DNA of 64,000 nt from an uncultured Verrucomicrobiota bacterium (GCA_913047795.1 CAJWTS010000006.1:19363-83362), one strand, 5' to 3'; positions 1-29,253 are shown, counted from the stretch's first letter. Notes: a model not told the origin generated them from the sequence alone. Made by a program: numbers and translations.

Positions 1-87
1 AAGAAACGTCTGTAATAGCACAGAAAAGCGCTCGCTTCGGCATAACCGCGGGGCCGGCCCCCTCCGGCAGCGATAATTCCGATAAAA

Positions 88-105
88 GGAATCCCCGGGT
101 ATTCC
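88..105. promoter_or_regulatory. Near-perfect 18-bp palindrome GGAATCCCCGGGTATTCC followed by GCCGGC and a T5 tract, about 125 bp upstream of the nfrB-like start. Candidate operator, or a weak intrinsic terminator of an upstream gene.
   Basis: Read directly: arms GGAAT/ATTCC around a CCCGGG core, then TTTTT at 112-116. Confidence 0.2.
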
Positions 106-230
106 GCCGGCTTTTTGGGTGGACAGATACTTCTAAAACGCTATGAATAACCCTTGCCCAGCGGGAGCACGCATCCGGGAAGACACGGTCAGGAGTGGTA
201 GACGCGGGGAGATAGCCAGGAGCCCGATCA

Positions 231-2249
231 ATGGAAGCCGCAGATCTTTTCTTTTACGCATGGGTCGTCTTTCGGTCTCTCTTCATTTTCCTCATAATTT
301 TCTTCATCGTCAGTGGTCTGGACGATCTGTTTCAGGACATCGTCTATTACTTGCGATGGATATTCAGGGCCATTTTTCGTCGCAAGCTCATCACGCCGGT
401 CACGCGCGAGCAGCTTGATGCCGTTCCGGAGAAGGCCGTCGCGATCATGGTCCCCGCCTGGGATGAGTCGGCGGTCATCGGACCGATGCTACTCAATACC
501 TGCAGCACACTGGACTACAAGAATTTCGTCGTTTTTGTCGGCACCTATCCTAACGATGAGGCAACGCGGGTTGAAGTCGAAAAAATTCGCGACATCTATC
601 CGAATATCGAAGTTGCCATTACGCCGTCCGACGGCCCGACCAATAAAGCCGACTGTCTGAACTGGGTCTACCAGGGGCTGCTTATTTACGAAATGGAACA
701 CGGGGTGCATTTCGATATTTTCTTGATGCACGATTCCGAGGACGTTATCCATCCGCTCTCGATCAAGTATTACAACTACCTGATCCCACGCCTCGACTTC
801 ATTCAGCTCCCGGTTTACCCGCTGGAGGCCAAGTGGACGGACCTGGTGATAGGCGTCTACATGGACGAGTTCGCGGAGAGCCACAGCAAGGATCTGCGCA
901 TTCGGGAGGCCCTGGCTCGTTCCATTCCGTCGGCGGGCGTGGGCACAGCCATGAGTCGCGCCACGATCGAGTTTCTCGCGTCCAGCCACGACAACCAGAT
1001 TTTCGACATCACATCGGTCACGGAAGACTACTTGATGGGACTCAAGCTGGAAGATTTCGAGGGGCGCAAGATATTCCTTCAGCAGGAAATCGAACGACCA
1101 GGCGAAGGGCGCAAGGAGCCGATTGCGACCCGCGCCCTGTTCCCGACGACGTTCGCGTCTGCCGTGCGCCAGAAGTCGCGCTGGATTCTCGGCATCGCGC
1201 TGCAGGGCTGGAGCGTGGGCTGGGGCCGCTCGCTCGGATCGGGCTATTACCTGTTTCGCGATCGCAAGGGAGTGCTCACGAACATCCTGGTTGTCGTGGG
1301 CTACATTGTCTTCTTCTGGTGGGCGATCAGCGGGTTCCTTAACAATCAATTCGCCGGAGTCGACATACCGCCGCTCGTGGAGACCGATGAGATCTGGTGG
1401 AACTTCAGCGGACTCGTACTGGCGCTCTTCGTCTGGCGCATCATCAATCGCGTGGGCTTCACCTGGCACGTCTACGGACCCAAGTTTGCGGTTCTGGCGT
1501 TCCCGCGCATGATTTACGCCAACGTGTTGAACTTCTGCGCGACCTTGGCCGCGATCAACGAATTCGCGAGTGCCAAGCGGGAGGGACGCGTGCCGGAGTG
1601 GAAGAAGACAGAGCATAGCTTCCCGTCCGAAGAACAACTGCGCCGCTACCGCCGGCGCCTGGGTGACATCTTGCTGGACAGGCGCTGGGTAACATCGGCC
1701 CAGTTACAGGAAGCCCTGGTGCGTCAGGAATCGGAGAAGCGCCCCCTGGGCGAACTTCTGGTCGAGATGGGCGTGCTCTGGGAAGAGGACGTAAAACTGG
1801 CGCTTTCTGTACAGGAAAATCGTCAGCGCGTGGAGATCGACCCCTACGCCACGCCCGGGGAACTCCTGAAGCGGGTGCCCCAGCACCTGGCGGAGAAGCA
1901 CAAGGTGTTTCCGCTGGCCTACAGCGGCGATCGAATCGTGTTGGCCACGGCGTCCGAGGACCGTTCCAACCTGGACGAGCTGAAGCGATCCCTCGACGCG
2001 ACGGTCGAGCTGCGCCACTCATCCGAAGCCGAGATCACGTTTGCTATTTCACGCGCCTACACCGACCTGCACCGGCCGGAATCGATGGAGGCCACCCTTG
2101 GCCAGCGCCTTATCGAAAAGGACCTGATCGACGAAAAGACGCTTCGCAAGGCCCTGCGCGAGCAGAAGGCCACGGACAAGCCCTTGGGCGAGGTATTGAT
2201 CAAGATGAAGGCCATCTCGAAGGTGGATCTCAAGGAGGGGTTGCAATAG
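231..2249 (+). CDS. nfrB: Family-2 glycosyltransferase (NfrB-like exopolysaccharide synthase): N-terminal TM segments, cytoplasmic GT-A domain, C-terminal tandem MshEN (T2SSE_N-like) c-di-GMP-binding domains
   Basis: 672-aa ORF. Hydrophobic N-terminus (FFYAWVVFRSLFIFLIIFFIV). GT2-like core (VPAWDESAVIG, MHDSEDVIHP). Four copies of the 24-residue MshEN motif at the C-terminus (RLGDILLDRRWVTSAQLQEALVRQ; PLGELLVEMGVLWEEDVKLALSVQ; TLGQRLIEKDLIDEKTLRKALREQ; PLGEVLIKMKAISKVDLKEGLQ). Confidence 0.8.
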   Translation: MEAADLFFYAWVVFRSLFIFLIIFFIVSGLDDLFQDIVYYLRWIFRAIFRRKLITPVTREQLDAVPEKAVAIMVPAWDESAVIGPMLLNTCSTLDYKNFVVFVGTYPNDEATRVEVEKIRDIYPNIEVAITPSDGPTNKADCLNWVYQGLLIYEMEHGVHFDIFLMHDSEDVIHPLSIKYYNYLIPRLDFIQLPVYPLEAKWTDLVIGVYMDEFAESHSKDLRIREALARSIPSAGVGTAMSRATIEFLASSHDNQIFDITSVTEDYLMGLKLEDFEGRKIFLQQEIERPGEGRKEPIATRALFPTTFASAVRQKSRWILGIALQGWSVGWGRSLGSGYYLFRDRKGVLTNILVVVGYIVFFWWAISGFLNNQFAGVDIPPLVETDEIWWNFSGLVLALFVWRIINRVGFTWHVYGPKFAVLAFPRMIYANVLNFCATLAAINEFASAKREGRVPEWKKTEHSFPSEEQLRRYRRRLGDILLDRRWVTSAQLQEALVRQESEKRPLGELLVEMGVLWEEDVKLALSVQENRQRVEIDPYATPGELLKRVPQHLAEKHKVFPLAYSGDRIVLATASEDRSNLDELKRSLDATVELRHSSEAEITFAISRAYTDLHRPESMEATLGQRLIEKDLIDEKTLRKALREQKATDKPLGEVLIKMKAISKVDLKEGLQ

Positions 2250-2251
2250 GC

Positions 2252-5200
2252 ATGAATCATCGATCCCGCATAAAGATTTCCTGCATTGCCGCCACGGGTC
2301 TCCTCTTGATTGGTGCCGGCCCGCTCGTGGCGGAAGAACTGTCGCAGGCCATGCCCATCCCGAAGCCGAAGGCGGGGTATGGCTGGTTCAAGAATCAGCG
2401 CGTCAACTACAGCAACCGTCCGTTGTGGAAGAAGGCCAACGCGTTGGTGGCGGAAGGCAAGCACACGCGCGCAGCGCGCGTCTACGATTCGATCCTCGCC
2501 ACGGACCCACACAACAACAAGGCCAAGGTTCACCTGATCCACCTCTACTTTCAGCTCGAAGAGTGGACCAGAGGCATCGACCTTGCCGAGAGCCTGATTG
2601 CGAATTATCCGGATTACCTCGATGCCTATTTCTTCAAGGCCAATTATGCGCTCAGGGCCGGGCGGACCCAATTGGCCGTCCGGACCTTCGAAGACATTCT
2701 CAATCGCGACCCCAGCCGGGCGGTCGCGAATTCCGAGGCGTACAAGGGCCTGGCGCGCGCACGATTTCCGGCGCGGGCGTATCAGAAGCGTCTACCCGAG
2801 GTGCACCGTAGCCTGGCGCGACTGTACTCCCTGAGCGGCGACGCCATGCGCGCGGAGGAACACGCCGCGCGTTGGCGTGACCTGACCGACGAGGGCGAAG
2901 CACATCTTTTTGTCGCCGAGAGCGCACTGAGCCGCAAAGACTGGGACAAGGCGATGGAGGCCCTGACCCTTGCCGGCGAACGCGTCGATACGGAAGAGCT
3001 GAAAGGACGCCTGAGTCTCAAGCGCGGAATGGTCCTCTATAATCTGAAGGATTACGACCGCGCGATGAACGAGCTCATGAACGCCGAAAGCAGAACCGAG
3101 AACGCCGCGGACAAGGCCCTGGCCCAGCGTTACCTCGGCCAAATTGCACTCAAGAAGGGCGCGAACACACGTGCGGCCGATTACCTGTTGTCCGCTACCG
3201 CGATCGCTTTTGACGAAGACGCTGGCGCCGCAGCCCTGCAGGCATTAATGGCGTCCGAGCAATGGGAACGCGGGGTAACCGCGGCCGAGAAGATGCTCAA
3301 GCGGGAAAATCTCTCCGATAACTTCCAGCGCGTGGCGAATGAGAACCTGATGTATTTCTACAAGAATAGCGGCAACGACCGCGGGTATGCCATGGTTGCC
3401 GATAAGCTGCGGCGCGAGAGCCCGGATGATCCGCGCTACCTGCTCGAGAGCGCCGTCGGTGCCGACCGGCTGGGGCGCGATGAGCGCGCGCGCGAATTCT
3501 ACACCACATATCTGGAGGGAAAATTCGACCCGGCCGTTGCCTTCAACCTGTTCTACCTGTTGAAGGAAACCGAGGACCTGGCCGCCGGCGAGGTTGTGCT
3601 CGACCGGGTCGTGGCGACGGAAGGACTAACAGACGACATGCGGCTCGCCGCGAACTACGAACTTGCGCAGGTCTACCGCGCGACCAACCGCACCAATGAC
3701 TACATGCGCATCATGGACCAGGTGGTCCTCGAGAAGGCCGAGGCGGAGCTGCTGTTTGAATATGGCGTGCAGCTCTACGGCAGCGGCTACGATGACCTGG
3801 CCGTCGAGCTATTCAAAAAGGCGTTCGAGCGCCAGACGGAGGCTGCCGACAACTTCAAGACCGCGATTATCATCGCCAAGATCAACATCGGGCACGGCGA
3901 GAACGAGGTCGGCCGCGAATGGTTAGAAAAGGCGCGTGCGTTCGGCGAGGTCGATGACGAATGGCATATCACGATGGCGCGCACGTATTTCAACAACGCC
4001 GAATATGATGCGGTGATCGAGCGCCTGCTGGGCGTGGTCAGCGAGCAGGACACGGGCGGCAACCTGCTGCTCGGGTTTACCTACCACCTGATGCGCATGC
4101 CCGGTCTGTCGCTGTACCACCTGAATCGCGTCGGCTCGCCGGAGAAGCTGGACCCCAGCGAGCGCAATACGCTTTTCTCAAACCGGGCCTACCTCTGGTT
4201 TGACCAGGGCAACTACGTTAACGCGCTGGCGGATGCCGAACGCGCTGTTGCGCCGCACACCGCAGACCAGATGATGCTGGTCCAAATGAAGGCGCTGTTG
4301 CCGCTAAATCGCTACGAAGAGGCGCGCGATATCGGTCTTGAGTTGCTCGACACGATGGACGAGGAGGAGGCGCCTTCCTTCGTCGCCGACCTGATGAAGA
4401 CGCTGGGAACCGTTCATTTCTATCTCAACGATAACGAGAACGCGGTCGAGTTCTTCACGGCGGCACTTAAAGTTGATGACGGGCAGTACGACGTCTACTA
4501 CCTGCGCGCCCTCGCCTATCACCGGCTCGAGGAGTACGAGAAGGCCGAGGAAGATTTCCTCCTGATAGAGACGGAGTCGTCTTTCATCCCGGCCGTGCTC
4601 TGGGGCGACATGGGAATCGTGGAGGGCTATCTTGAGAATTACGATACCGGCACCGTGGTTCTGGCGCGGTCGCTCGAGTACTACCGGTACGATATCGACG
4701 GCATCGAAGAGATGGCATACCAGCACATGAAGAACAACGACAATGCGAAGGCGCAAGATGCGTTCTTCCGGGGCGTGCGCGCGTACGACAATGTTATCCC
4801 GTACATCACCGGGCCGGATCGCGAAATTTATACAGACGACCGCAAGGCCCTGAAGCGCGAGTACGCCAAGCTCGATCGGACGTGGACATTCGAAACCTAT
4901 GTTAACCGGACAGAATTTGGGGACGACGCGGTTGCGGGCTTCGCCGGAACGCTCTCGGCAGTGGACGGCGGCCTGCCCTCCCAGGCAGGTGTCTACCTGG
5001 GGTATCGACCTCCGAAGCTGGGGTTTCGAGATGAGAAGACCCTGGATGGGTTCGCGCGCGTGCTGGCGAATTTCGAGCCCGACTCCTGGGCCCTCGACGA
5101 GGATACCTATCAACTCGGGATTGGATTGGACTGGAAACCCTTCAAGGCGTTCAACTATTCGATGAGCTTCGAGAAGCTCATCGCGATCGGGGATAACGCC

Positions 5201-5638
5201 GAAGATAACTGGCTCTGGCGCAACAAGGGATCGGTTGAGTTTGGCGAGAAGCCGAAGAAGCTCAAGGAAGCCTGGACGAGCGGCCGACTCTATGGCGATA
5301 TCGCGTGGTATCTCGATGATCCCAATCGCGTCGTCTACTACCTCGACGGTCGCCTGGCGCGTACGATCGCACTTTCGGATACCTTCTTGCTGACGATTCC
5401 GCAGGGCAAAGCGGTGTGGCGCTATCAGAACAACGATCCCGACGGTATTGGTTCGTATGTGATAGCTTCGATCGGGTTCGAAGCGCGATTTCTCGAGAAA
5501 GAGAGAGATGCGCTGACCGAACGCTGGTACATGGATCTCTTCGCCCACTATGCCTGGGGTTGGTTCACGGACGAACCGCGGATCAAGGGCGATCGTAACT
5601 TCGAGGGCATCTGGTTCGGTGCCACGTTCCGGAAGTGA
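2252..5638 (+). CDS. nfrA: Outer-membrane exopolysaccharide export protein: signal peptide, long TPR-repeat periplasmic region, C-terminal beta-barrel (NfrA/PgaA/BcsC-like)
   Basis: 1128-aa ORF starting 2 nt after the nfrB stop. N-terminal signal-like segment (SCIAATGLLLIGAGPLVAEE). Hundreds of residues with Ala/Leu/Tyr-rich TPR periodicity. Last ~300 aa have alternating hydrophobic/aromatic beta-strand pattern ending ...GIWFGATFRK. Confidence 0.7.
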   Translation: MNHRSRIKISCIAATGLLLIGAGPLVAEELSQAMPIPKPKAGYGWFKNQRVNYSNRPLWKKANALVAEGKHTRAARVYDSILATDPHNNKAKVHLIHLYFQLEEWTRGIDLAESLIANYPDYLDAYFFKANYALRAGRTQLAVRTFEDILNRDPSRAVANSEAYKGLARARFPARAYQKRLPEVHRSLARLYSLSGDAMRAEEHAARWRDLTDEGEAHLFVAESALSRKDWDKAMEALTLAGERVDTEELKGRLSLKRGMVLYNLKDYDRAMNELMNAESRTENAADKALAQRYLGQIALKKGANTRAADYLLSATAIAFDEDAGAAALQALMASEQWERGVTAAEKMLKRENLSDNFQRVANENLMYFYKNSGNDRGYAMVADKLRRESPDDPRYLLESAVGADRLGRDERAREFYTTYLEGKFDPAVAFNLFYLLKETEDLAAGEVVLDRVVATEGLTDDMRLAANYELAQVYRATNRTNDYMRIMDQVVLEKAEAELLFEYGVQLYGSGYDDLAVELFKKAFERQTEAADNFKTAIIIAKINIGHGENEVGREWLEKARAFGEVDDEWHITMARTYFNNAEYDAVIERLLGVVSEQDTGGNLLLGFTYHLMRMPGLSLYHLNRVGSPEKLDPSERNTLFSNRAYLWFDQGNYVNALADAERAVAPHTADQMMLVQMKALLPLNRYEEARDIGLELLDTMDEEEAPSFVADLMKTLGTVHFYLNDNENAVEFFTAALKVDDGQYDVYYLRALAYHRLEEYEKAEEDFLLIETESSFIPAVLWGDMGIVEGYLENYDTGTVVLARSLEYYRYDIDGIEEMAYQHMKNNDNAKAQDAFFRGVRAYDNVIPYITGPDREIYTDDRKALKREYAKLDRTWTFETYVNRTEFGDDAVAGFAGTLSAVDGGLPSQAGVYLGYRPPKLGFRDEKTLDGFARVLANFEPDSWALDEDTYQLGIGLDWKPFKAFNYSMSFEKLIAIGDNAEDNWLWRNKGSVEFGEKPKKLKEAWTSGRLYGDIAWYLDDPNRVVYYLDGRLARTIALSDTFLLTIPQGKAVWRYQNNDPDGIGSYVIASIGFEARFLEKERDALTERWYMDLFAHYAWGWFTDEPRIKGDRNFEGIWFGATFRK

Positions 5639-6837
5639 CCATGGCGCGAGCACGGAGAACAAAGGACATGCGAAAAGCTTACGGCCTGATATTGATGATG
5701 GCAGCCTGCCTGTGGTCGCTCGACGGCCTGGCCGGAGATGCGACGTTTGTTCAGCTGAGTCGCGCCGCGGCAAAACGGTCGGCGGATGATTGGCGGGCGG
5801 AGTTTGAAAAGATGACGGCCATAGGGGTCGATACGATCATTCTGCAGTGGACGGCGGAGACAGACATTGCGTATTTCGTTCTTGTCGAGGACGCGGAGGC
5901 GCCGGAAGACCCCGTTGCCGCAGGGGTGCGCGCGCGGGAAGAAGACCTGGCCCCGACGAATCCGAGCGAGACCATGAAGGAGCCGGTCGTTCTGCCTGAC
6001 ATTTCCGCCGAGGAAACCTACCCCGAACAGTACCCGGTCCTGGAGCGGATTTTCGAGGCCGCCGAAGCAAGTGGCGTCTCGGTCGTGCTGGGCCTGCACC
6101 ACGATCCGAATTACTGGACCGAGATCACCGCACGCATGCGTGTATTGAAAGACTACTTTTATGTGCGCACCGCCCATAACGAACGGCTGCAATTGGAGTT
6201 GCTGAAGAAGTTCAGCCATCGCACGAGCTGGATCGGCTACTACGTGCCGGATGAGATCGATGATTTAACATGGCGCACGGATGCCAAGCTCGATCTCGTG
6301 GCGGGTTACGTGGCTCTCCTCAGCGAGCGCTTGCGCGCCAACGACGCCGACCGCGGCATCACGATCAGTAGCTTTTTCCGGCTGCGCACCGCCCCCGATG
6401 TCTATGCCCGTAACATCAAGCGCATTCTTTCCGGCAGCGACGTGACCGAGCTGTTGGTACAGGACGGCATGGGCGACGGCAACCCGTGGAAATACGCGAA
6501 ACACTATGTGCCGATTTACTATGAAACGCTTGCGGAGGTCCTGAAGGAAGAAGCCTACGATCGTAAAGTCGTGATTGAACTTTTTGAACGCGTCACGGAT
6601 GTGGGCGAACCCTTTCGTGCCGTTTCGGCGCCGGTCGATCGCGTCAGCCGGCAGATCGAAATGGCCGCCCCGCATTTCGCGGGGAAAGTCTACTTCACGT
6701 ACTCGAACTACATGCATCCGGCTCGGGGCGAACATGCCGCTGAGCTTTACGATGCAATGAAGTCCGGATCACGAAAAAGAGCCGCCGCAGTCGCCGCACC
6801 CGCCGCACCCGCCGCACCCGCACCGGAAGACAAGTAA
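5635..6837 (+). CDS. Secreted/periplasmic glycoside-hydrolase-like (TIM-barrel-like, YbcH/DUF4434-type?) protein with C-terminal Pro-Ala repeat tail
   Basis: GTG start overlaps the nfrA stop (GTGA). Signal peptide (MRKAYGLILMMAACLWSLDGLAG). ORF ends in AAAVAAPAAPAAPAPEDK. Third position in the nfr-like operon. Product assignment is tentative. Confidence 0.5.
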   Translation: MTMARARRTKDMRKAYGLILMMAACLWSLDGLAGDATFVQLSRAAAKRSADDWRAEFEKMTAIGVDTIILQWTAETDIAYFVLVEDAEAPEDPVAAGVRAREEDLAPTNPSETMKEPVVLPDISAEETYPEQYPVLERIFEAAEASGVSVVLGLHHDPNYWTEITARMRVLKDYFYVRTAHNERLQLELLKKFSHRTSWIGYYVPDEIDDLTWRTDAKLDLVAGYVALLSERLRANDADRGITISSFFRLRTAPDVYARNIKRILSGSDVTELLVQDGMGDGNPWKYAKHYVPIYYETLAEVLKEEAYDRKVVIELFERVTDVGEPFRAVSAPVDRVSRQIEMAAPHFAGKVYFTYSNYMHPARGEHAAELYDAMKSGSRKRAAAVAAPAAPAAPAPEDK

Positions 6838-6866
6838 CCGGCGCGTTCCGTGCCGCGCGGCTTTCC

Positions 6867-9500
6867 TTGAGTTCACATATGCCCGGGCGTATAATCCCGC
6901 CTCTCGTGAAAGAGACCGAAATAGATGTTTTCCCCATGGAGCCGGCCGATCCCGTGCCCGCCGACAGGATTCGCGTGCTCGTTATCGATGACGAGGAGCC
7001 GATTCGGAGGCTTGCGCGTCGCATACTGATCCAGGCAGGGTGTACCGTGGAGGCCGCCGTCGATGGCCGTGACGGGTTGCAATTGCTGCTCGGGAGCGAC
7101 TTCGATGTTGCTGTTGTTGACCTCAAGATGAGCCGCATGGACGGTATCGCGTTTCTGGTCGAGGCGCTTCGGATCTGTCCCTGGATCGGCGTCGTCATCG
7201 TAACCGGATTGAGCCAGCAGGTCGACGTGGACCGCGCTCGAGAACTCGGCGTAAAACACATTCTCAAGAAACCGTTCAGGGTCGACGAATTCCGCGGCAT
7301 GGTTTTCGAGCAGGCCGAGGAAAAGCGTCGCAAGTTAACGACCTCGTCGGACATCTCCCTTGGACGTATTCAGAACGCGCTCGGGCTGTTTCGCCAACTG
7401 ACCTGCGCGGCGACGGAATCGGACACGCTGCTTGATGCCCTGCAGAGCCTGAGCACGGGCCTGCAGATACTGCCGTCGGCCGTCGTCGCGATCCTGAGCC
7501 TGGAAGAGGACCCGATCCTGGTGATCAGCGTGCTAAAGCCCGTGTCGCGGGAATTTCTACAGACCTTCGAGGATGAGATCCGGACGCGTTATCAACGATT
7601 CAGCGGCCAGACCCTCTCGAGCGAACTGCGGATCGAGGTGCAGGGCGTGGCCGAGAGCGAGGACGGCGCCGCCGCGGTTGGAAACTCGTTCAGCATTCCA
7701 ATTATCACCGGTGGCGACATCAGTGGCCTGCTCGCGCATGCGTCGATCGATAAAGACGCGTATTCCGAGACGGACATGTTGTTCATGTACCACGCTGCCA
7801 ACCTGCTCTCCACGGTGCTGCTGACCTTCCGCCGGATGAAACAGCTCGCGGTGCGCGATGCGCTCACGGGCCTGTATAACCAGCGCGGCCTGCGGGAGCA
7901 GATGGAGAGCGTGTGGCAGATGGTGAAACGCTATCACTACCGGGTCAGCATCGCCGTGTTGGACATCGACCAATTCAAGGCGGTCAACGATACCTATGGA
8001 CACCCGGTCGGCGACGAAGTGTTGCTCGAGTTGGGCGACCTGTTGCGCGTCAGTGTCCGCGCGTCGGACATCATCGGCCGTTACGGCGGTGACGAATTCG
8101 TCATCTTGTTCCCCAATGCCTCGCCGGAAGACCTCGCCGCGTTTTCGGAACGATTCATGGAAACGCTGCGCGGTCATATCTTCTGCGACGGCACGCACGA
8201 CCTGAAGCTGACCGTATCAATGGGCATGTCCAGCAGCTTTGGCCAGGACTGGCTCTTGCTCTCGAGCAACGAGATCCTGACCCAAGCCGATCAGGCGCTC
8301 TATACCGCGAAAGATAACGGACGGGATCAGGTCTGCATGTGGTCGGCGGGCGGTTTCGCTGCGACCGAGACCATTGAGACGCTTGCGCCCGTGGCGCGCG
8401 AGACCGCCAAGCATGAAATCCAGGGTGCCGGGCGCCTGCTTGTCGTAGATGACGAGCAGGTCGTGCTCGACTACTTACGGACGGTTTTAAAAACCGAGGG
8501 CTACGAGGTCGTCGCCGTGCAATCCGCGGAAGAAGCCCGAGAGGCGTTGCGCTCTGCGCCCGGAGAAATCGGCATCGTCGTAACCGACATCACGCTTAAA
8601 GAGGAAAGCGGCTTGGATCTGCTCAAAGACCTTCGTTCCCTTGACGACATGCTTGTCGCGATTGTCATGACCGGGAACGTCACGCTCGATAACGCGGTCA
8701 GTAGTTTACGTCACGGTGCGTACGACTTCATCGAAAAGCCGATCGAAGTCGCCCCATTGCTTGCCGTTCTAAATCGCGCCCGCGAATACCGGCGCTTGCG
8801 CCTGCAGAACCGCCGCTACCAGCTGCGCCTCGAAGACATGGTGCGAGAAAAGAGCAAAGAGCTCTCGATTGCGCTCGAACAAGCTAAGCAGTCGTACAAC
8901 TTCACGCTCGAGGCACTGGTCAACATGATCGACGCGCGCGAGCAGAACACGGGTCGGCATAGCGTTAATGTCCGTGAGCTCTCCCTCATTCTCGGACGCG
9001 AACTGGACCTGGAGGAACGCGACATGCGGATCCTGAGCCAGGGCGCGCTCCTGCACGACATCGGAAAAATTGCGATTCCCGACAGCATCCTTCTCAAGGA
9101 AGGACCCCTCACGAGCGATGAGTGGGTTGTCATGCGCTCCCACGCCGAGAAGGGGTACGAGATCGTATCGCGATCGCCGTTTCTGAAGGAATCGGCCGAG
9201 ATCGTGCACTCCCACCAGGAAAAATATGATGGAACGGGCTATCCCCGCGGCCTCGCCGGCGATGATATATGTATGGGTGCCCGCATATTCGCGGTTGTCG
9301 ATGCCTACGATGCGATGCGCACCGACCGCCCCTACCGGAAGGCCATGCGCACAAGTGACGCCATAAACGAGCTGCGGACATATTCCGGAACGCAATTTGA
9401 TCCGACTGTCGTCGAAGCCGCGCTACGCTGCATCGACCAGATGGAGCGTGTCCGCGCCCTGACGACCGATATAGAAGCCAACGAAGTCGCCGCACGTTGA
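6867..9500 (+). CDS. Composite c-di-GMP enzyme: receiver (REC) - GAF-like - GGDEF diguanylate cyclase (intact GGDEF plus RxxD I-site) - second REC - HD-GYP phosphodiesterase
   Basis: 877 aa. REC1 (VLVIDDEEPIRR...VVDLKMSRMDG). GGDEF motif RYGGDEF at 8085-8099 preceded by RASD (I-site spacing). REC2 (LLVVDDEQVVLD...VTDITLKEESG). HD at 9054-9059 and GYP at 9237-9245 (HDIGK...HQEKYDGTGYPRGL). Confidence 0.85.
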   Translation: MSSHMPGRIIPPLVKETEIDVFPMEPADPVPADRIRVLVIDDEEPIRRLARRILIQAGCTVEAAVDGRDGLQLLLGSDFDVAVVDLKMSRMDGIAFLVEALRICPWIGVVIVTGLSQQVDVDRARELGVKHILKKPFRVDEFRGMVFEQAEEKRRKLTTSSDISLGRIQNALGLFRQLTCAATESDTLLDALQSLSTGLQILPSAVVAILSLEEDPILVISVLKPVSREFLQTFEDEIRTRYQRFSGQTLSSELRIEVQGVAESEDGAAAVGNSFSIPIITGGDISGLLAHASIDKDAYSETDMLFMYHAANLLSTVLLTFRRMKQLAVRDALTGLYNQRGLREQMESVWQMVKRYHYRVSIAVLDIDQFKAVNDTYGHPVGDEVLLELGDLLRVSVRASDIIGRYGGDEFVILFPNASPEDLAAFSERFMETLRGHIFCDGTHDLKLTVSMGMSSSFGQDWLLLSSNEILTQADQALYTAKDNGRDQVCMWSAGGFAATETIETLAPVARETAKHEIQGAGRLLVVDDEQVVLDYLRTVLKTEGYEVVAVQSAEEAREALRSAPGEIGIVVTDITLKEESGLDLLKDLRSLDDMLVAIVMTGNVTLDNAVSSLRHGAYDFIEKPIEVAPLLAVLNRAREYRRLRLQNRRYQLRLEDMVREKSKELSIALEQAKQSYNFTLEALVNMIDAREQNTGRHSVNVRELSLILGRELDLEERDMRILSQGALLHDIGKIAIPDSILLKEGPLTSDEWVVMRSHAEKGYEIVSRSPFLKESAEIVHSHQEKYDGTGYPRGLAGDDICMGARIFAVVDAYDAMRTDRPYRKAMRTSDAINELRTYSGTQFDPTVVEAALRCIDQMERVRALTTDIEANEVAAR

Positions 9501-9529
9501 CGCGTGGCCAAGAAGAAAGGGTTCCCCGT

Positions 9530-10636
9530 ATGTCGAGGTGCCGAATTTTATGTGTAGTCGGAACGCGACCGGAAGCCATCAAGATGGCGCCGGTCATCCG
9601 CGAGATTCAAAAGGACCCCGATACGTTCGATCTCACGATCAAGTCAACGGGTCAGCATCGTGAAATGCTGGTGCAGGCACTGAGTACCTTTTCGATCACC
9701 CCGAATGTCGACCTCGACATCATGGCCGGCGGCCAAACGCTGGCCTACGTGACCAGCGAAGTGCTGACCGCCATGCAGAGCTATCTGCAAAACAACGAGA
9801 CGGACGTGGTCATGGTACAGGGCGATACAACGACCACCATGGCCGCCGCAATGGCGAGTTTTTATAACGGCGTACGCGTGGCGCACGTCGAGGCCGGATT
9901 GCGTACCTGGAACGGCTGGGAACCCTTCCCCGAGGAGATGAACCGGCGCGTGACGAGCCTCGTGGGCCACTATCACTTTGCGCCGACGGACCTGTCCGCG
10001 CAGAACCTGCTCCGCGAGGGAGTCGATCCGGCACGCGTGCATGTGACTGGGAATCCGGTCGTCGATGCTCTGATGTATGTGCTGGAGCACACCGAAGCAC
10101 CGCCCACGCCGATCGCGGAGGGGCGGCCGTATATCCTGATGACCTGCCACCGGCGCGAAAGCTTTGGTGAGCCGATCCGGGAGATCTTTGGCGCGATTCG
10201 AGCGTTTGCGCAGACACATCCCGAGCTTTCGATATGGTATCCGGTGCATCCCAACCCGAAGGCCAAGGAACCGGCACACGAGATCCTTGGCGACTTGGAG
10301 AACGTCGTTTTGAGCGAGCCACTAGATTACGTGGGTTTCGTGCATGCCATGAAGGGCGCTTACCTTGTTGTATCGGATTCCGGCGGGGTCCAGGAAGAGG
10401 CACCGTCGCTTGGAAAACCGGTCCTGGTCTTGCGCGATGTCACGGAACGGCCCGAAGCCGTGGAAGCCGGGACCTGTCGGCTTGTCGGGCCGCACCGAGA
10501 CCGCATACTCGAGTCCCTGGAACGGCTCCTGTCGGACAAGGCAGAATATCAGCGAATGGCGGGAATCAGCAATCCCTTCGGGGATGGCGCCGCCGCGGAG
10601 CGTATCGTATCCCTCATCCGCGACGACTACGCCTGA
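9530..10636 (+). CDS. wecB: UDP-N-acetylglucosamine 2-epimerase (non-hydrolysing), makes UDP-ManNAc
   Basis: MSRCRILCVVGTRPEAIKMAPV..., DIMAGGQTL, HVEAGLRT, classic Epimerase_2 signatures. ATG at 9530 with AAGGG upstream. 29 nt after the previous gene. Confidence 0.9.
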   Translation: MSRCRILCVVGTRPEAIKMAPVIREIQKDPDTFDLTIKSTGQHREMLVQALSTFSITPNVDLDIMAGGQTLAYVTSEVLTAMQSYLQNNETDVVMVQGDTTTTMAAAMASFYNGVRVAHVEAGLRTWNGWEPFPEEMNRRVTSLVGHYHFAPTDLSAQNLLREGVDPARVHVTGNPVVDALMYVLEHTEAPPTPIAEGRPYILMTCHRRESFGEPIREIFGAIRAFAQTHPELSIWYPVHPNPKAKEPAHEILGDLENVVLSEPLDYVGFVHAMKGAYLVVSDSGGVQEEAPSLGKPVLVLRDVTERPEAVEAGTCRLVGPHRDRILESLERLLSDKAEYQRMAGISNPFGDGAAAERIVSLIRDDYA

Positions 10637-10779: not shown

Positions 10780-11604
10780 ATGAACGAGGATAACGACAAG
10801 AAAGAAACAGCACCGGAAGCGGTACCGGAAGCGGTACCGGAAACGGCGTTGGACACCGCGGTCACCGAGACACAAGAGCAGGCGGTACCCCAGGCGACGT
10901 TCGCGAGATACGGCAAGTGGGCCGTGTTTGCCGTCTGCGCCGTGGGAATTCCCGTTGTCGGAATGTTCATGTACACCGCCTCGCAGCGCGCGAAGGTGCG
11001 GCGTGCGGCCGAATTGGTGGGCGCGGCCCGGAACGTGGTGCAGCTACAGAAGGTCCTGGACCAATACCCCGACGCACCCGCGGCGGCACATGCCAAGCTC
11101 GCGATGGCCAAGGCGTATTTCGACCAGAGCAATTATGCCGGTGCGCTCAAGATCTACCAGTCCTTCGAGCAGGAATATCCGGAGCATTACTTTGTTCTTG
11201 CGGCGCGCCTGGGTATTCACACCTGTGGCGAGGCGCTCGGCACCACGCTCTACCGACAGGGCCAGAGCATGGCGGCGCGCGAGAAGCTTGAGGCGGCACG
11301 GAACGGATACCGCAGTTTCGTTGACGCGAATCCGGATCATTTTCTGGTCGCGCAGGCGATCTTCGGCGAAGCAAGCTGTCACCAGCAACTGGGCCGACTG
11401 CAGGACGCGCGGATTCTATATGAGGATTTCATCACGACCTCGACGAACAGCCCCTGGGTACAGCTTGCGGAACGACAACTCGCGGCCGTCGAACGCGATA
11501 TCGAGCGGACCGAGCGGGGAGAACCGGCGCGCGAGACGGTGATTACGCCTCTCGGCATCCCCGCGGAGTCGGCATGGCAACTCCCCGAAACATTCGGGCC
11601 GTAG
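10780..11604 (+). CDS. Membrane-anchored TPR-like protein (YfgM/YbgF-like architecture), function unknown
   Basis: Acidic N-terminus with repeated PEAV, one TM (WAVFAVCAVGIPVVGMFMY), then helical repeat region rich in A/L/Y. Confidence 0.45.
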   Translation: MNEDNDKKETAPEAVPEAVPETALDTAVTETQEQAVPQATFARYGKWAVFAVCAVGIPVVGMFMYTASQRAKVRRAAELVGAARNVVQLQKVLDQYPDAPAAAHAKLAMAKAYFDQSNYAGALKIYQSFEQEYPEHYFVLAARLGIHTCGEALGTTLYRQGQSMAAREKLEAARNGYRSFVDANPDHFLVAQAIFGEASCHQQLGRLQDARILYEDFITTSTNSPWVQLAERQLAAVERDIERTERGEPARETVITPLGIPAESAWQLPETFGP

Positions 11605-18292: not shown

Positions 18293-18814
18293 CGGTCCGC
18301 CCTTTCGTTACTCGGGTAATCGCCAAACATAGTTCGACCGCGTTGACGCATCGCTTAAAGCAGCATGTATGCCACCGCAACCCCACAACACCGCCGGATC
18401 GCCGGACAGTCGCAATTCGGGCTGTTTCTAACACGAAAACGTGCAAACATTCTGCAAGGCGTCGCGCAACGCAATTGCCGAATGCGTGTCCATTTGTCCC
18501 ACATCCGGACATGTTGCCGGGTTTCGTGACGATCTGTCTCGCCACGGTGTGACACGTCTTGATCTGCATCGTCCACGCGTCGCAACCCCGCGTTACGACA
18601 TGTAGTAGGTTGTCCCCCTGAGACACACCACAGTGATCGAATCCGATAGGCGGTAACAGCGGTGTCCGCATCGCGTGCTCGTCATCACGGTTCGGGACGC
18701 TGGAGGCCCTGTCCTCCGTGGCTACGCCCCGCCGCAGACAGAAAGGGCGAAGGAGGATCGAAAACCCGCAATTCCGCTTGCCATGCGATACACTTTTGTA
18801 ACAATGCTGGCTCC

Positions 18815-20395
18815 ATGGCATCAGCTCCCACCACAACCGCGCGTGCGGCGCAGGACGAACTCGAAGCGCTGTATCACATCTCGCAGACGACCACGGCGCA
18901 TCACGACGATGTGAGCGCCCTTCTGATGGAGGTGCTCAAAATTCTAGAAACCGAGCGCGGCATGGGGCACGGCACGCTGACCCTGCGCCGGCCCGACACC
19001 GACGTGTTCGTCATCGAGGCGTCGCGCGGTCTCTCCAGTGCTGAACGCGAACGCGGTCAGTACCGGCTCGGCGAGGGCGTCACCGGTCGCGTTGCAAAGA
19101 GCCGCATCCCGGCACTCGTGCCCGATGTCAGCAAGGACGACGAATTCCTGAACTTGACCGGCTCGCGCAAGAAAATGAAGACCGCATTCCTCTGTGTGCC
19201 CATCACCTACCGTCGCCGCGTGATTGGAACCCTGAGTGCTGATCGACCGACGGCGACAAACGACGTCCTCGATCGCGAACTGAACTTCCTGAAACTGGTT
19301 GCCGGCCTGCTGGCCGAAGCCGTGGCTGCCTCGCGCGAGCAGCTGCAGGAGCGCGAAAGCCTGCTGGCCGAGAACACTCTGCTGCGTCAGCAACTCGGCC
19401 AGAGCTACCATCCCAATAACATGGTGGGCACGAGCCGCGTGATCCGATCCGTCTACGGCCAGGTGCGCCAGGTTGCAGACAGCACGGCGACGGTCCTGGT
19501 GCGCGGTGAGTCCGGCACCGGCAAGGAGCTCGTGGCCAAGGCGATTCACTATTCAAGCGCGCGCAAGACCAAGCCCTTCATCGGCGTCAATTGCGCGGCC
19601 CTGCCGGAAAACCTGATCGAAAGTGAACTCTTTGGGCACGAGAAGGGCGCGTTCACGGGTGCCGAGAAGCAGCGGCACGGGCGCTTTGAACTCGCTGACG
19701 GCGGAACCCTATTCCTGGATGAAATCGGTGATATCTCGCCGGCCGTTCAGGTCCGGCTGCTGCGCGTCCTGCAGGAACGCTGCTTCGAGCGCGTTGGGGG
19801 TTCACGGACCATCAAGATCGACGTGCGCATCATCGCCGCGACGAGCCGGGACCTGGAGCAGGCCATAGAGGATGACCGGTTTCGCGGCGACCTCTACTAC
19901 CGGCTCAATGTGTTCCCGGTGCATCTGCCGCCCTTGCGCGAGCGCCGCTCGGATATCCTGCTCCTGGCCGAACACTTTCTGAAGCAATACAGCGAATCCT
20001 ATGCGAAGGACATCCGCCGCATCTCCACCCCGGCGATCAACATGATGATGGAGTATCATTGGCCCGGCAACGTGCGCGAACTCGAGAATTGCATCGAACG
20101 TGCGGTCTTGAGCAGTGCTGACAACGTGATCCACGCGTATTCGCTGCCACCCTCGTTGCAGACGAGCGAAGAAACAGACACCGCGCTGTTGCCGTCCGAC
20201 GGCGCCAGCCTCAAGACGCTGGTCGATTCCTATGAACGCGAGGTTATCGTGGATGGGCTGAAGCACTGCGGGGGAAACGCCGCCGCCACCGCTCGTCACC
20301 TCAAGACCACCAAGCGTATCTTGAACTACAAAATCAAGCACATGAACATCAAGGCGGAGCGCTACCGTGGCCCGGCGGACGAAAATGGATCGTAA
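18815..20395 (+). CDS. Sigma-54-dependent transcriptional activator (enhancer-binding protein), GAF - AAA+ - HTH (NifA/FhlA-like)
   Basis: [15 protein letters not shown] (Walker A), EKGAFTGA (GAFTGA sigma-54 contact motif), C-terminal HTH. Start moved to the internal ATG at 18815. Confidence 0.85.
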
Positions 20396-21839
20396 CGGCG
20401 CATGTCGGAGACTGGCCGCGCTGGCGATCGTCGCCGCATCGCTGGCCGCACCTTGCCGCGCGCACGACGATCTGACCCCGGAAGAGGTGCTGGACCTCAC
20501 GGGCAGGGCGCTCGCTTCCATCGCGCGCCGCGCTATTCCCTGCGTGGTGCACGTCTGGGCCGACAATCGCCCCCCGTCACCGGACGCGGAGAAGGAAGAA
20601 GGCCTGACGCCCGAGATGCAGGAACGGATGCGACAGCTATGGATGCACCCGGACTTACGACGCTTGCATGGTCCCTTTCCGTTTCGCCGTCGCCGTGAAG
20701 GCACCGGGCTGATCGTCAGCGAGGACGGATACATTGTCTCCAATCACCACGTCGTGGGCGACGCCGATTCGATCAAGGTGCGCCTGCATGATGGACGTGA
20801 GTTCGATGCGACGGTCGTGGGCACGGACGCAAAATCGGAAATAGCGGTGATTAAGATCACGGCTGAAAAGCTCCCCGTCTTGCCCGACGGCGATTCCACA
20901 GAACTCGACGTGGGGGAATGGGTCATGGCCATCGGGAATCCATTTGGGCTGAGCGAGACCGTGACCGTCGGGGTGGTCAGCGCCAAGGGCCGCAGCGGTT
21001 TGGCCATCGCCGAATACGAGGATTTCATTCAGACGGACGCGGCGATCAATCCCGGCAATTCGGGCGGGCCGCTGATCGACAAGCAGGGCAAGGTCATCGG
21101 CATCTGTACGGCGATCGTGAGCGGCACGGGTAGCTACATGGGCGTGGGCCTCGCCGTTCCAATGAGTATGGCGCGAGGCGTGATTGATCAGTTGATTCAA
21201 AGTGGGCACGTCACGCGCGGATTTCTCGGCGTCTACATTCAGAACGTGAATCATGAAATGGCGGAATTTTTCGGCCTCAAGGCGGCCGGTGGCATCATCA
21301 TCGCCGAGGTGCTCAAGGGTTCCGCGGCCGACCGCGCGGGCCTGAACGCAGACGATATTGTCCTGGAGCTCGACGGCCTGGCCGTGCGTAATACCAGCGC
21401 CTTCCGTAACGCTGTCGCGGCCCGTCAGCCCGGCACGCCGATCAACCTTCTGGTCTTTCGCGAGGGGCAGAAACGCAAGGTCGCCGTCACGGCCGGTGAA
21501 CACCCGGATCAGGTTGCGGCGGAAGCCCCGGCCTCGGGGCCGGATATCGATGGCCTGGGGCTTAGCGTGGAAGCCCTTCCGAAGGAACTTTCCGCCGAGA
21601 TGGACATGGACGCGGGCGTCATTGTGACCGGTGTCGCGGAAGGCAGCTTGTCCTCCGCGCAGGGGATCGAAGTCGGCAACGTTATCGCCAGCGTGAATCG
21701 TAAGCGCGTGAAGGACCCGCAGGAATTCGCGCGATTGGTTGAAGAAGCCTCCGGCCGCGGCAAGGTACTGTTGCTGGTCAAAACCGGCAATAGCACGCGT
21801 TACGTGCTCATCACGCGTTCCCCAGTAACTGCGCCTTAA
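20385..21839 (+). CDS. htrA: Periplasmic serine endoprotease DegP/HtrA family with two PDZ domains
   Basis: Signal peptide ([17 protein letters not shown]). Catalytic triad context ([13 protein letters not shown]). Two PDZ-like segments. Start overlaps the EBP stop by 11 nt. Confidence 0.85.
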
Positions 21840-27044: not shown

Positions 27045-28067
27045 ATGATGCCTTACGATGTCGACCAGCCGGGAAGCTACGTCGTGACCGAGAACCTGAC
27101 CGGCTCAGCCGCATGGAATGGCATCACAATCGCCGCCGATGACGTCACGATTGATCTCAACGGCTTTGCGCTTACGGGTGTGCCCAACTCGAAGGACGGT
27201 ATCTCGGCCGGATCCAATTATGAAAACATCGAGATCCTGAACGGCAGCATCCAGAATTGGGGCGATGATGGGATCGACATGTTCGGCGTCACCAATGCAA
27301 TCGTTCGTGACCTGCGGGTATCCCACAACGCGGACGACGGAATGCGGGTTGGATACGCCAGCCGCGTCTCGGACTGCACCCTGCTTGAGAATACGCACGA
27401 CGGGCTCGTGGCACAGAACGGATCCATTGTCGCCCGCTGTGTTGCGCGCGACAATTCCGACAGCGGCCTGGTCGTCGGAAACGGCTGTACCGTCCGCGAC
27501 AGCGTATCGCGCCAGAACAGCGACGACGGTATTTATGCCGGCGAGGGGTCGACGGTCGTGGCCTGTACCACGCGATCCAACGGGGACAACGGGATCCAGG
27601 TCGGTCGCGGCAGCCTCGTGACGACCTCGGTCGGTTACGCCAATGACGACAATGGCATTTGGGTCAATGGTGCGGGCGGAAGCGTGATCAACTGTTCCGT
27701 GTTTGGGAACTCGCTTTACGGCATACGCGTTGGCGATGGCTGTTCGATCATTTCCTGCACCGCCAGCGGAAACGAAAAGGATTCCTTCTACGTATCCAAC
27801 AGTTGTTATGTTTTCGGCAACAATTCGTTCGAAGCGGCGAACAGCGGCTTCAAGGTCGCTGGAGACAAGAACCGGATCGATCGCAATCACGCCACGCGCG
27901 GCGCAAAGGGCTATAGTGTTACCGGTGCCGACAACCTCATCATCCGCAACTCCGCGTCGGGTAATAGCGATTCCAGCTACGGCATTGGAGGCGGTAACGA
28001 TGCCGGCGGCATCGAGACGGACCCGTCCGCGGCATCCGCCGGGCCGTGGGATAATTTTTCGGATTGA
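27045..28067 (+). CDS. Right-handed parallel beta-helix (PbH1 repeat) protein, paralog 1. Its N-terminal signal peptide lies in another frame (26956-27045), so this is a possible frameshift or pseudogene.
   Basis: Repeats of the form N-x-x-DG-I...V. In-frame translation upstream of the first ATG still reads SGRIEISQDMMPY, matching paralog 2, but has no start codon. A signal-peptide ORF MALSHRIRKLFASGLVSLSLGVAAS sits in the +1 frame. Confidence 0.6.
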   Translation: MMPYDVDQPGSYVVTENLTGSAAWNGITIAADDVTIDLNGFALTGVPNSKDGISAGSNYENIEILNGSIQNWGDDGIDMFGVTNAIVRDLRVSHNADDGMRVGYASRVSDCTLLENTHDGLVAQNGSIVARCVARDNSDSGLVVGNGCTVRDSVSRQNSDDGIYAGEGSTVVACTTRSNGDNGIQVGRGSLVTTSVGYANDDNGIWVNGAGGSVINCSVFGNSLYGIRVGDGCSIISCTASGNEKDSFYVSNSCYVFGNNSFEAANSGFKVAGDKNRIDRNHATRGAKGYSVTGADNLIIRNSASGNSDSSYGIGGGNDAGGIETDPSAASAGPWDNFSD

Positions 28068-28068
28068 T

Positions 28069-29253
28069 ATGAATCCTGGTCGCAGAGCATGCGTCGCGAT
28101 CCTGTCCCTCGTCACCATCCAGGGCCATGGCGACAACGGGCGTATCGAAATCTCGCAAGACATGATGCCCCTCACGATCAGCGAACCGGGAAGCTATGTC
28201 GCCGTCGAGAATCTCGTTCATGCCAATTCGGGAGATGGGATCACGATCACGGCCAACAACGTCACGCTGGACCTGAACGGGTATCGCCTGTTTGGAGGAG
28301 CGGGGACGGTCTCGGACGATGGCATCTCCATTCCTTATGGGCACAACATCGAAATCCGAAATGGCACGATCAAGGGATTCGGAGATCACGGCATCGATGC
28401 GCTGTTTTCGACCAACAGCGTTTTTCGGCACCTGCGTGTAATGGACAACTATGACGCCGGCATCCTCGCGGGCACGGCATGCTCGATACTCGAAACGGTC
28501 TCCTCCCGTAACGGCGTGCGCCAAGGGCGTTCGGGGACCGGGGTCGGGATAGAGGTGGATATCGGCTCGATGATTGTCGACTGCACCGTATCTGCCAATT
28601 ACGACCATGGCATGGTTGTGTCCTCGGGCTCGACGGTCATGAATTGCATCCTATCCGGCAACGGTCACGACGGCGCCCATGGCGGCTTCGGAACCCTGTT
28701 CCGCAGGATCATCGCCTTCGAGAACATCGGAGAAGCCTTTGAAGCAAACGGGGGAAGTGTGGTCGCGGAATGCGTTGCCCAGCGCAATATCGACGACGGG
28801 ATCAAGGCGGCAGACGAAGGGCGACTGCTCTTGGTGCGTTGTATTGCAACGGACACGGCCAACCTTGTCGACGGGAAGGGCGACGGGATTAAGGGGCAGA
28901 GCGGCAGTCTCGTGCTCGAGTGCACGGTGCGCGACAACTATGACGATGGCATTACCGTGGCCAGCGGAGCTTTCGTATACGACTGCCTTGGTTCCGGCAA
29001 CGGATATGGCGAGGACGAGTCGCCCGGTGGTGGTGTACGCATGACGGGTCCGCAGGAGGGGGTGGACTCGCGCTGTGACGACAATCACCTGCTGAACAAC
29101 GCACGCGGCGCCGAAGCCGGGGTAAATTGCCTGGTCGTGAAGAATAGTGCCGAGGGGAATACCATCGATTACGCGGTCTCCAGCCGTGCGCACGAAGACA
29201 TCACGAGCGTGAACCCCAACAACGCCGGCCCCTGGGCCAGCTTCGACTACTAG
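28069..29253 (+). CDS. Right-handed parallel beta-helix (PbH1 repeat) secreted protein, paralog 2
   Basis: MNPGRRACVAILSLVTIQGHG signal, then GRIEISQDMMPLTISEPGSYVAVENL. C-terminus NNAGPWASFDY parallels paralog 1 (SAGPWDNFSD). Start is 1 nt after the paralog 1 stop. Confidence 0.7.
   Translation: MNPGRRACVAILSLVTIQGHGDNGRIEISQDMMPLTISEPGSYVAVENLVHANSGDGITITANNVTLDLNGYRLFGGAGTVSDDGISIPYGHNIEIRNGTIKGFGDHGIDALFSTNSVFRHLRVMDNYDAGILAGTACSILETVSSRNGVRQGRSGTGVGIEVDIGSMIVDCTVSANYDHGMVVSSGSTVMNCILSGNGHDGAHGGFGTLFRRIIAFENIGEAFEANGGSVVAECVAQRNIDDGIKAADEGRLLLVRCIATDTANLVDGKGDGIKGQSGSLVLECTVRDNYDDGITVASGAFVYDCLGSGNGYGEDESPGGGVRMTGPQEGVDSRCDDNHLLNNARGAEAGVNCLVVKNSAEGNTIDYAVSSRAHEDITSVNPNNAGPWASFDY

Follow-up and report, generated by a model that had tools for sequence, protein, structure and literature searches.

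A predicted Nfr-type, cyclic di-GMP-gated exopolysaccharide cluster with a linked two-receiver regulator in a probable marine PVC-group bacterium

Results

Organization of the gene cluster

The 64,000-nt stretch of DNA analysed here (GCA_913047795.1, CAJWTS010000006.1:19363-83362; referred to at its full length as the window) carries, at positions 231-10636, five adjacent genes encoding an NfrB-like glycosyltransferase, an NfrA-like export protein, a YbcH-like periplasmic protein, a response regulator with both domains of cyclic di-GMP (c-di-GMP) metabolism, and the UDP-GlcNAc 2-epimerase WecB. With a probability of about 0.8, we consider these genes to specify an Nfr-type, synthase-dependent exopolysaccharide system that is gated by c-di-GMP and is supplied with its own enzymes for making the precursor and for controlling c-di-GMP. 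In E. coli, NfrB binds c-di-GMP via MshEN (Kd about 1 uM) and needs DgcJ and WecB (Junkermeier & Hengge, mBio 2021, PMC8669469), the same model was given by Sellner et al. 2021 (PMC8669472), and the polymer made by the system is the receptor of phage N4 (PMC8669469, PMC8669472). The account of this N4, NfrB, NfrA, DgcJ and WecB system given with the original prediction, which was made from the window sequence, agrees with both papers. The host is probably a marine member of the PVC (Planctomycetes, Verrucomicrobia, Chlamydiae) group, likely of Kiritimatiellota; annotation pipelines label the first gene 'adsorption protein B' (K11740), and one cluster member was sampled in the mesopelagic zone by Tara Oceans. 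The features of the cluster are as follows.

1-230, plus strand: leader or promoter region of nfrB, non-coding; the window starts within this intergenic stretch
231-2249, plus strand: NfrB-like family 2 glycosyltransferase (GT2) synthase with C-terminal MshEN, 672 aa
2252-5638, plus strand: NfrA-like TPR export protein with NfrA_C, 1128 aa
5635-6837, plus strand: YbcH-like DUF4434 periplasmic protein, 400 aa from GTG 5635; likely start ATG 5668
6838-6935, plus strand: gap between ybcH and the regulator gene, non-coding, with a promoter-like element inside (promoter scan; insertion or deletion in relatives)
6936-9500, plus strand: REC-(divergent GAF)-GGDEF-REC-HD-GYP regulator, 854 aa (the ORF from TTG 6867 has 877 aa)
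9530-10636, plus strand: WecB, non-hydrolysing UDP-GlcNAc 2-epimerase (ORF 9497-10636, 379 aa)

Five plus-strand genes had been predicted in this order, and the raw list of open reading frames (ORFs; 231-2249, 2252-5638, 5635-6837, 6867-9500 and 9497-10636, all on the plus strand) contains them as claimed, with their domain calls confirmed by profile searches. The gaps predicted between them, 2, -4, 29 and 29 nt, were reproduced at the ORF level, but the third of them did not survive correction of the gene starts. In two relatives that are 98% identical (loci L020 and L021), a single nucleotide is missing between TTG 6867 and ATG 6936, which would break the frame opened by the TTG and shows that this stretch does not code. 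Regulator orthologues are 830-900 aa long, their first receiver domain starts near residue 13, and the relative P0001 (98% identity) has 854 aa. Judged by these alignments, the regulator almost certainly starts at ATG 6936 (854 aa) instead of TTG 6867, which makes the gap between ybcH and the regulator gene 98 nt. An exact look-up with the 877-aa sequence gave no match, because the TTG start was wrong. For ybcH, the N-termini of homologues align at ATG 5668 (389 aa, +29 nt from nfrA), which may be the start rather than GTG 5635 with its overlap of -4 nt. The start of wecB was placed at ATG 9530, 29 nt after the regulator stop, since the TIGR00236 match opens at residue 16 of the TTG-initiated ORF; public (JGI) calls of wecB in L020 (10006-11058) and L021 (12649-13701) begin 18 codons late and cut the GTRPE nucleotide-binding motif. 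At the left border, nfrB of L021 is preceded, at a distance of about 340 nt, by a transketolase gene in opposite orientation, and we therefore regard nfrB as the first gene and positions 1-230 as its leader. Searches of the leader and of the complete window detected neither a c-di-GMP riboswitch nor any other Rfam family.

Synthase, exporter and periplasmic protein

The first gene had been read as a GT2 synthase with C-terminal MshEN domains, and both halves of this reading were recovered by profiles: Pfam gave Glyco_tranf_2_3 (106 bits), Glyco_trans_2_3 and MshEN (the T2SSE_N profile; 33.8 bits, cut-off 23.1), and the NCBIfam c-di-GMP_motif model, which is MshE-related, matched two stretches with 98.8 bits. 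The MshEN-type receptor consists of two tandem motif pairs at about residues 476-528 and 620-672, and this C-terminal part matches the solved MshEN domains of PilF, PilB and MshE. Its 24-residue c-di-GMP motifs are kept in comparison with E. coli NfrB (RLGDILL...QLQEAL and PLGELLVEMGVL...LALSVQ). The protein is 36% identical to NfrB of E. coli MG1655 over 593 aa, and the glycosyltransferase signatures HDSEDV (DxD), TEDY (TED) and QKSRW (QxxRW) align with D169, D267 and W330 of that protein. Hydrophobic segments are present at residues 3-38 and 346-371.

The second gene product matched multiple TPR families and, at about residues 870-1128, NfrA_C of Pfam (41.6 bits, cut-off 25), and it has an N-terminal hydrophobic segment at residues 7-27 as expected of a signal peptide. 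When profiles of the window clade and of proteobacterial NfrA C-termini, that of E. coli among them, were aligned by hhalign, the probability was 99.95% (E 1.6e-38, 303 columns), in agreement with the NfrA-like identity proposed originally. The C-terminal domain is presumed from this homology to be an outer-membrane beta-barrel. A crude count of beta-amphipathic segments in residues 871-1128 gave 6, compared to 3.7 +/- 1.8 in shuffles, and is not above the shuffles.

The third protein belongs to the family of E. coli YbcH (DUF4434, 124.8 bits; 29% identity to YbcH over 154 aa), and the gene order nfrB-nfrA-ybcH is that of E. coli. Current descriptions treat YbcH as a putative scaffold or an auxiliary component (PMC8669469; annotation in RefSeq). 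An AlphaFold2 (AF2) model built from 11 sequences (mean predicted local distance difference test, pLDDT, 76; core > 90) contains eight alternating strands and helices, that is, a (beta/alpha)8 TIM barrel. Foldseek with this model returned first 4h41, an uncharacterised Bacteroides protein that the family profile also matched by sequence (E 1.5e-13), followed by GH164 beta-mannosidase, GH5 mannanases, Cwp19 and GH42. Two glutamates, E196 (PDEIDD, at the end of strand 4, residues 188-197) and E304 (VIELF, at the end of strand 7, residues 298-304), are invariant in all aligned homologues, among them YbcH of E. coli, and each of the two also aligns in 4h41. The predicted model thus has what defines clan GH-A, a (beta/alpha)8 barrel in which strands 4 and 7 each end in Glu, and since this placement is the geometry of the acid/base and nucleophile in retaining glycosidases of the clan, it suggests that YbcH is a periplasmic hydrolase of the system rather than a scaffold. 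A hydrolase-like periplasmic protein is what had been predicted at this position, and the glutamate pair suggests a testable function for E. coli YbcH. The window protein also has an acidic, Pro-rich insertion of ~45 residues (window 5875-6024, residues about 70-119) and an Ala/Pro-rich C-terminal tail (window 6774-6834, residues about 369-389), both missing from most homologues and modelled at low confidence.

A regulator with two receivers, a cyclase domain and a phosphodiesterase domain

The fourth gene encodes a cytoplasmic protein for which no membrane segment was predicted. Of the architecture REC-GAF-GGDEF-REC-HD-GYP that was originally assigned to it, Pfam recovered two Response_reg domains, GGDEF with 137 bits and HD_5/HD-GYP with 147 bits, whereas the GAF domain between the first receiver and GGDEF stayed below threshold in the window protein (GAF_3, E 0.0035, 18 bits, cut-off 27) and is supported at the level of the family, where GAF_2 matched in 30 of 36 orthologues. 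The protein matches the solved REC-GGDEF cyclases DgcR, PleD and WspR, and the solved HD-GYP phosphodiesterases PmGH (4mcw), V-cGAP3 and PA4781. The NCBIfam model of DgcJ gave 92.7 bits against a cut-off of 500, through the GGDEF domain only. About 80 full-length orthologues with 39-59% identity and the same architecture were retrieved by homologue search, and those with a name are from metagenome-assembled genomes of Kiritimatiellia or 'Verrucomicrobia'. A scan of metagenomes with back-translated HD-GYP patterns from the regulator alignment detected generic REC-HD-GYP proteins only, with a full-length orthologue in 0 of 80 loci.

Conservation of the functional motifs was counted over 79 aligned orthologues. 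In the GGDEF motif (residues 384-388) the two Gly and the Glu are invariant, with D or E at the third position, and 78 of the 79 carry the RxxD inhibitory site (RASD, residues 375-378). No orthologue deviates in the HD dyad or in the Gly and Tyr of GYP, and the Pro of GYP is found in 78. The phospho-acceptor Asp is kept in 76 (first receiver) and 78 (second receiver) orthologues, and the residues DD18-19, D62, T90 and K112 of the first receiver and DD505-506, D551, T579 and K601 of the second are each kept in 75-79 of 79, with Thr or Ser at the T position. Compared to the metal ligands of PmGH, the single His ligands are invariant, and E and the second Asp occur in 76-78 orthologues. Based on this pattern, both catalytic centres are considered to be under selection.

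One deviation concerns the HHE motif, which reads HQE in the window protein (residue 761, window 9216-9218), so that one metal ligand differs. Gln occupies this position in 28 of the 79 orthologues and His in 51, which suggests two sequence subtypes, maybe differing in their metal centre. The replacement of the second His speaks for a one-sided enzyme, either a phosphodiesterase whose GGDEF domain senses GTP or c-di-GMP or a cyclase in which the HD-GYP domain is impaired, and it is general knowledge that many composite c-di-GMP enzymes of the GGDEF-EAL type use one of their domains as a regulator. We think a one-sided enzyme improbable in view of the residues that never vary (Gly and Glu of GGDEF, the HD dyad, Gly and Tyr of GYP), the other PmGH-aligned metal ligands (E, H, HD, H, D), kept in 76-79 of 79, and the nearly universal RxxD site. 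The most economical model from the conserved residues would be a two-input push-pull enzyme, in which the first receiver and GAF act on the cyclase and the second receiver acts on the phosphodiesterase.

Genomic contexts of the synthase and of the regulator

A genome scan with NfrB yielded 19 loci (L001-L019), including Auribacterota, Gemmatimonadota, Acidobacteriota, Bacteroidota, Negativicutes, Alphaproteobacteria and Betaproteobacteria. The Acidobacteriota with NfrB-like genes are Bryobacteraceae and Granulicella and the Bacteroidota are Chitinophagales, a range wider than described in 2021. The closest genome relative by NfrB, Ca. Erginobacter occultus of the PVC group (L001), has nfrB-nfrA-DUF4434-wecB without the regulator. 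The betaproteobacterial locus of Noviherbaspirillum suwonense (L018, 1091-18316) has an NfrB-like GT2 without MshEN, and a gene for a deacetylase-like DUF2334 protein has been inserted 5' of nfrA; upstream there is a divergent wecB and, a few kb away, genes for GGDEF and dCache-PAS-GGDEF-EAL proteins. From the side of the regulator, 11 independent contexts were sampled, which fall into the following arrangements.

nfrB-nfrA-DUF4434-regulator-wecB: window/L020/L021 and L110
wecB divergent, then nfrB-nfrA-DUF4434-regulator-REC: P0013 locus
GT2-MshEN, regulator, NAD-epimerase: L028
regulator directly upstream of a PGA-like cluster with a GT2 carrying N-terminal PilZ: L024/L025 and L111
decayed nfr cluster: L022/L023
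regulator alone among housekeeping genes: L026, L027, L112 and L113

The regulator thus lies beside an MshEN-type synthase in 4 of 11 contexts, beside a PilZ-type synthase in 2, in a decayed nfr cluster in 1 and alone in 4. The order nfrB-nfrA-DUF4434-regulator is kept at regulator identities of 98% (L020, L021), 56% (L110) and 48% (P0013 locus), so the comparison of synteny called for originally finds it in three diverged lineages. Orthologues of the regulator also stand alone or beside a different synthase.

These contexts bear on whether the regulator belongs to the Nfr system at all. In the alternative, it would be a general (global) c-di-GMP response regulator that merely neighbours the nfr genes, as would fit the orthologues alone among housekeeping genes in four contexts, the cluster of Ca. 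Erginobacter without a regulator, the solubility of the protein, unlike the membrane-bound DgcJ, and a promoter-like element of its own in the 98-nt gap. The lone copies and the separate element keep this alternative alive. However, 6 of 11 contexts are beside a c-di-GMP-gated GT2 of either receptor type, with one decayed nfr cluster in addition, which is far above what a random neighbour would give and argues for a functional pairing of regulator and synthase, and in two lineages the gene sits inside the cluster, between ybcH and wecB. A global regulator is accordingly rather unlikely in our estimate, and we give about even odds to the regulator being a dedicated partner of NfrB.

A broader form of the pairing is also conceivable, although we hold it only tentatively: regulators of this family may serve as portable push-pull modules for c-di-GMP, with two inputs, that are specifically paired, in Kiritimatiellota and related PVC bacteria, with exopolysaccharide synthases of either the MshEN Nfr type or the N-terminal PilZ PGA-like type. 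If this is true, specificity would come from the pairing of enzyme and synthase and not from the receptor domain, and the two kinds of cluster would amount to a natural swap experiment for the model of local signalling.

Several details of these loci were recorded besides. In the PilZ-type clusters (L024, 12684-17849; L111, 12709-21399), the regulator is directly 5' of a chitin-synthase/PgaC-like GT2 with N-terminal PilZ, and the cluster also encodes a protein of 640 aa that weakly matches polysaccharide deacetylases, together with a TPR protein (529 or 1540 aa); L026 is syntenic with L024 except for the missing PilZ-GT2 cassette. In L022 (2359-6027) and L023, where the regulator is 59% identical, the nfr cluster is decayed or remodelled: nfrB and wecB are missing, NfrA is represented by two TPR genes that cover its residues 41-577 and 618-814 and lack the barrel domain, a Lnb_N/DUF7843/DUF7840 gene lies upstream, and DUF4434 and the regulator are kept in the same tatA-smpB-groEL neighbourhood. 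In two lineages (P0013 locus; L111, 21022-21399), a gene for a 125-aa single-domain receiver comes after the synthase cluster to which the regulator is linked, and several histidine kinases are encoded within 10 kb at the P0013 locus. These receivers and kinases are candidates for the phosphorylation inputs. In the window, no histidine kinase gene was present among the 30 downstream ORFs scanned with Pfam.

WecB and the composition of the polymer

The last gene had been called a UDP-GlcNAc 2-epimerase, an assignment borne out by TIGR00236 (454.9 bits, cut-off 210) and Epimerase_2 (381 bits). Since the polymer is chemically undefined even in E. coli (PMC10211494), WecB might serve another envelope glycan, or the synthase might use a different UDP-sugar; the NfrB-like gene of L028 adjoins a gene for an NAD-dependent epimerase/dehydratase and not wecB, and at 7 of 19 NfrB-like loci no wecB lies within the fetched flank. 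On the other side, wecB is a neighbour of the NfrB-like gene at 12 of the 19 genome loci, which span many phyla, and also in three lineages of the window clade, and E. coli genetics requires WecB without the rest of the enterobacterial common antigen pathway (PMC8669472). We regard a polymer free of ManNAc as quite unlikely and a ManNAc-containing polymer as reasonably probable. By analogy with E. coli, it is plausible that the polymer serves as a phage receptor.

Transcription of the cluster

The functions were originally described as hard-wired into one transcription unit. The five-gene cluster is real, but its expression as a single transcript is put in question by the gap before the regulator gene. 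Within the stretch shown to be non-coding by the deletion in relatives, a promoter-like TTGAGT-N17-TATAAT at 6867-6895 matches a sigma-70-like consensus at 10 of 12 positions and ranks highest among the promoter-like matches of the first 12.6 kb; the TTG taken as a start by the mechanical ORF call falls on its -35 hexamer. The gap is long in all relatives compared (167 nt in L110, 162 nt in L022 and 91 nt at the P0013 locus), whereas the junctions of nfrB-nfrA-ybcH are short or overlapping (2 nt, then -4 to +29 nt). This indicates a possibility of two transcription units with a promoter each, nfrB-nfrA-ybcH and regulator-wecB, the latter joined by its 29-nt gap. On the other hand, the promoter scan as a whole gave 3 sites where 3.9 are expected by chance, the sigma-70 consensus may not fit the host phylum, an internal promoter would be compatible with read-through, and there is no convincing terminator 3' of ybcH, as the hairpin at 6839-6856 is no more stable than shuffled versions (z -0.44). 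A hairpin sought as a terminator after wecB likewise folds no better than shuffles. We give two units slightly less than an even chance, and a single unit a chance that is at best even.

Genes around the cluster

Downstream of the cluster are a TPR gene (10780-11604), tatA on the minus strand, smpB, a sulfatase gene, groEL and dnaK. The TPR gene was considered as a sixth component and rejected: its product is a YfgM-like TPR_21 protein with an N-terminal membrane anchor, it goes with tatA and smpB, and the TPR-tatA-smpB block persists in L022, which is without nfrB and wecB. A horizontal-transfer island was rejected as well, given a G+C content of 55-61% compared to 60-65% nearby, housekeeping flanks and a layout common to diverged relatives. 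Further downstream of dnaK (18662-21839), a GAF-containing sigma-54 activator gene is followed by one for an HtrA/DegP protease, a pair and order kept in L022. The window also encodes a right-handed beta-helix protein of 516 aa (27703-29253) and contains four long ORFs (492-881 aa) with no Pfam match at E <= 1e-5 (34009-36654, 41859-43337, 56227-57843 and 59328-61403).

Discussion

The Nfr-type reading of the cluster would assign the following roles to its products. WecB would convert UDP-GlcNAc to UDP-ManNAc, and the NfrB-like GT2 in the inner membrane would polymerise the sugar and drive the chain across that membrane, being active only with c-di-GMP on its C-terminal MshEN motifs. In the periplasm, the DUF4434/YbcH protein may act as a GH-A-like hydrolase that shortens or removes the growing chain, like BcsZ, PslG and PgaB of other systems, and the TPR arm of the NfrA-like protein would take the chain, which would leave through the C-terminal outer-membrane pore. 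The cytoplasmic regulator is predicted to set the level of c-di-GMP seen by NfrB: its first receiver, with GAF, would control the cyclase in the manner of PleD or WspR, with product inhibition at RxxD, and its second receiver would control the HD-GYP phosphodiesterase in the manner of RpfG, and kinases would therefore push the output up or down.

Several observations weigh against this reading. Although the synthase passed PRK15489, the model of the NfrB sister (578 bits, cut-off 537), it reached only 506 bits with the NfrB equivalog PRK11234 (cut-off 1170), and it is thus a member of the NfrB family yet outside the enterobacterial equivalog. Pairwise similarity of the exporter to E. coli NfrA is weak and confined to the C-terminus (E 7e-4), and AF2 with a shallow alignment of three sequences did not model a barrel there (pLDDT 37). 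Because the structure model failed, the presumed barrel rests on homology and on the published models of E. coli NfrA (PMC8669472). As for the regulator, it is soluble, reads HQE where HHE is expected, is alone in 4 of 11 contexts and has no kinase gene near it in the 64-kb window, and its gene is preceded by the 98-nt non-coding gap with the promoter-like element.

The finding extends the Nfr system, known as the phage N4 receptor pathway of E. coli, to a probably marine bacterium of the PVC group, and it does not overturn current models. The main organising principle has already been published: nfrBA-ybcH was reported to be often linked to wecB and to GGDEF genes (Junkermeier & Hengge 2021, section 11, PMC8669469), so that the union in one cluster of functions scattered in E. 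coli was known, and nfrA-nfrB-wecB clustering was described in Achromobacter (Sellner et al. 2021, PMC8669472). What is new is the occurrence in a PVC-group lineage, outside the clades given in 2021, the recurrence of the regulator family beside a PilZ-type synthase, and a partner enzyme with the sequence features of a dual-receiver cyclase and phosphodiesterase instead of those of a plain cyclase. This predicted synthase and degrader with two phosphorylation inputs is unlike a simple cyclase, and its presence beside synthases with different c-di-GMP receptors provides a handle on the specificity of local signalling. The hydrolase-like nature suggested for YbcH by its model is also new.

Compared to NfrB-NfrA-YbcH with DgcJ and WecB of E. 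coli K-12, the window has the same three core proteins in the same order, a GT2 with DxD, TED and QxxRW and C-terminal MshEN pairs, a TPR and NfrA_C exporter, DUF4434 with the invariant Glu pair, and linked genes for a UDP-GlcNAc 2-epimerase and a c-di-GMP enzyme, which would likewise be required. The differences are that wecB and dgcJ are elsewhere in the E. coli genome, that DgcJ is a membrane-bound dCache-GGDEF cyclase whereas the window enzyme is a soluble REC-GAF-GGDEF-REC-HD-GYP protein, that identity is low (NfrB and YbcH as given above; NfrA weak and C-terminal), and that the host is of the PVC group and not an enterobacterium. The nfr operons of Pseudomonas and other proteobacteria (PMC8669469, Fig. 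7, section 11) likewise link synthase and exporter to wecB and a downstream c-di-GMP enzyme. The published enzymes are described as GGDEF cyclases, whereas the window enzyme combines cyclase and HD-GYP domains, each with a receiver, and lies between ybcH and wecB. The betaproteobacterial L018 cluster differs from the window in its dCache-PAS-GGDEF-EAL gene upstream and its NfrB without MshEN.

Bcs (with DgcC/PdeK) and PgaABCD are also c-di-GMP-gated systems with a processive inner-membrane GT2, a periplasmic hydrolase (BcsZ, PgaB), a TPR-plus-barrel exporter (BcsC, PgaA) and co-localised source and sink enzymes. In the window the receptor is MshEN instead of PilZ (Bcs) or the PgaC-PgaD interface, the sugar is predicted to be different, and source and sink would be one polypeptide. 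Finally, PleD, WspR and DgcR (REC-GGDEF) and RpfG (REC-HD-GYP) each correspond to one half of the window regulator, with Asp, GGDEF, RxxD, HD and GYP kept, whereas the window regulator fuses both halves, with a divergent GAF in between and HQE in place of HHE.

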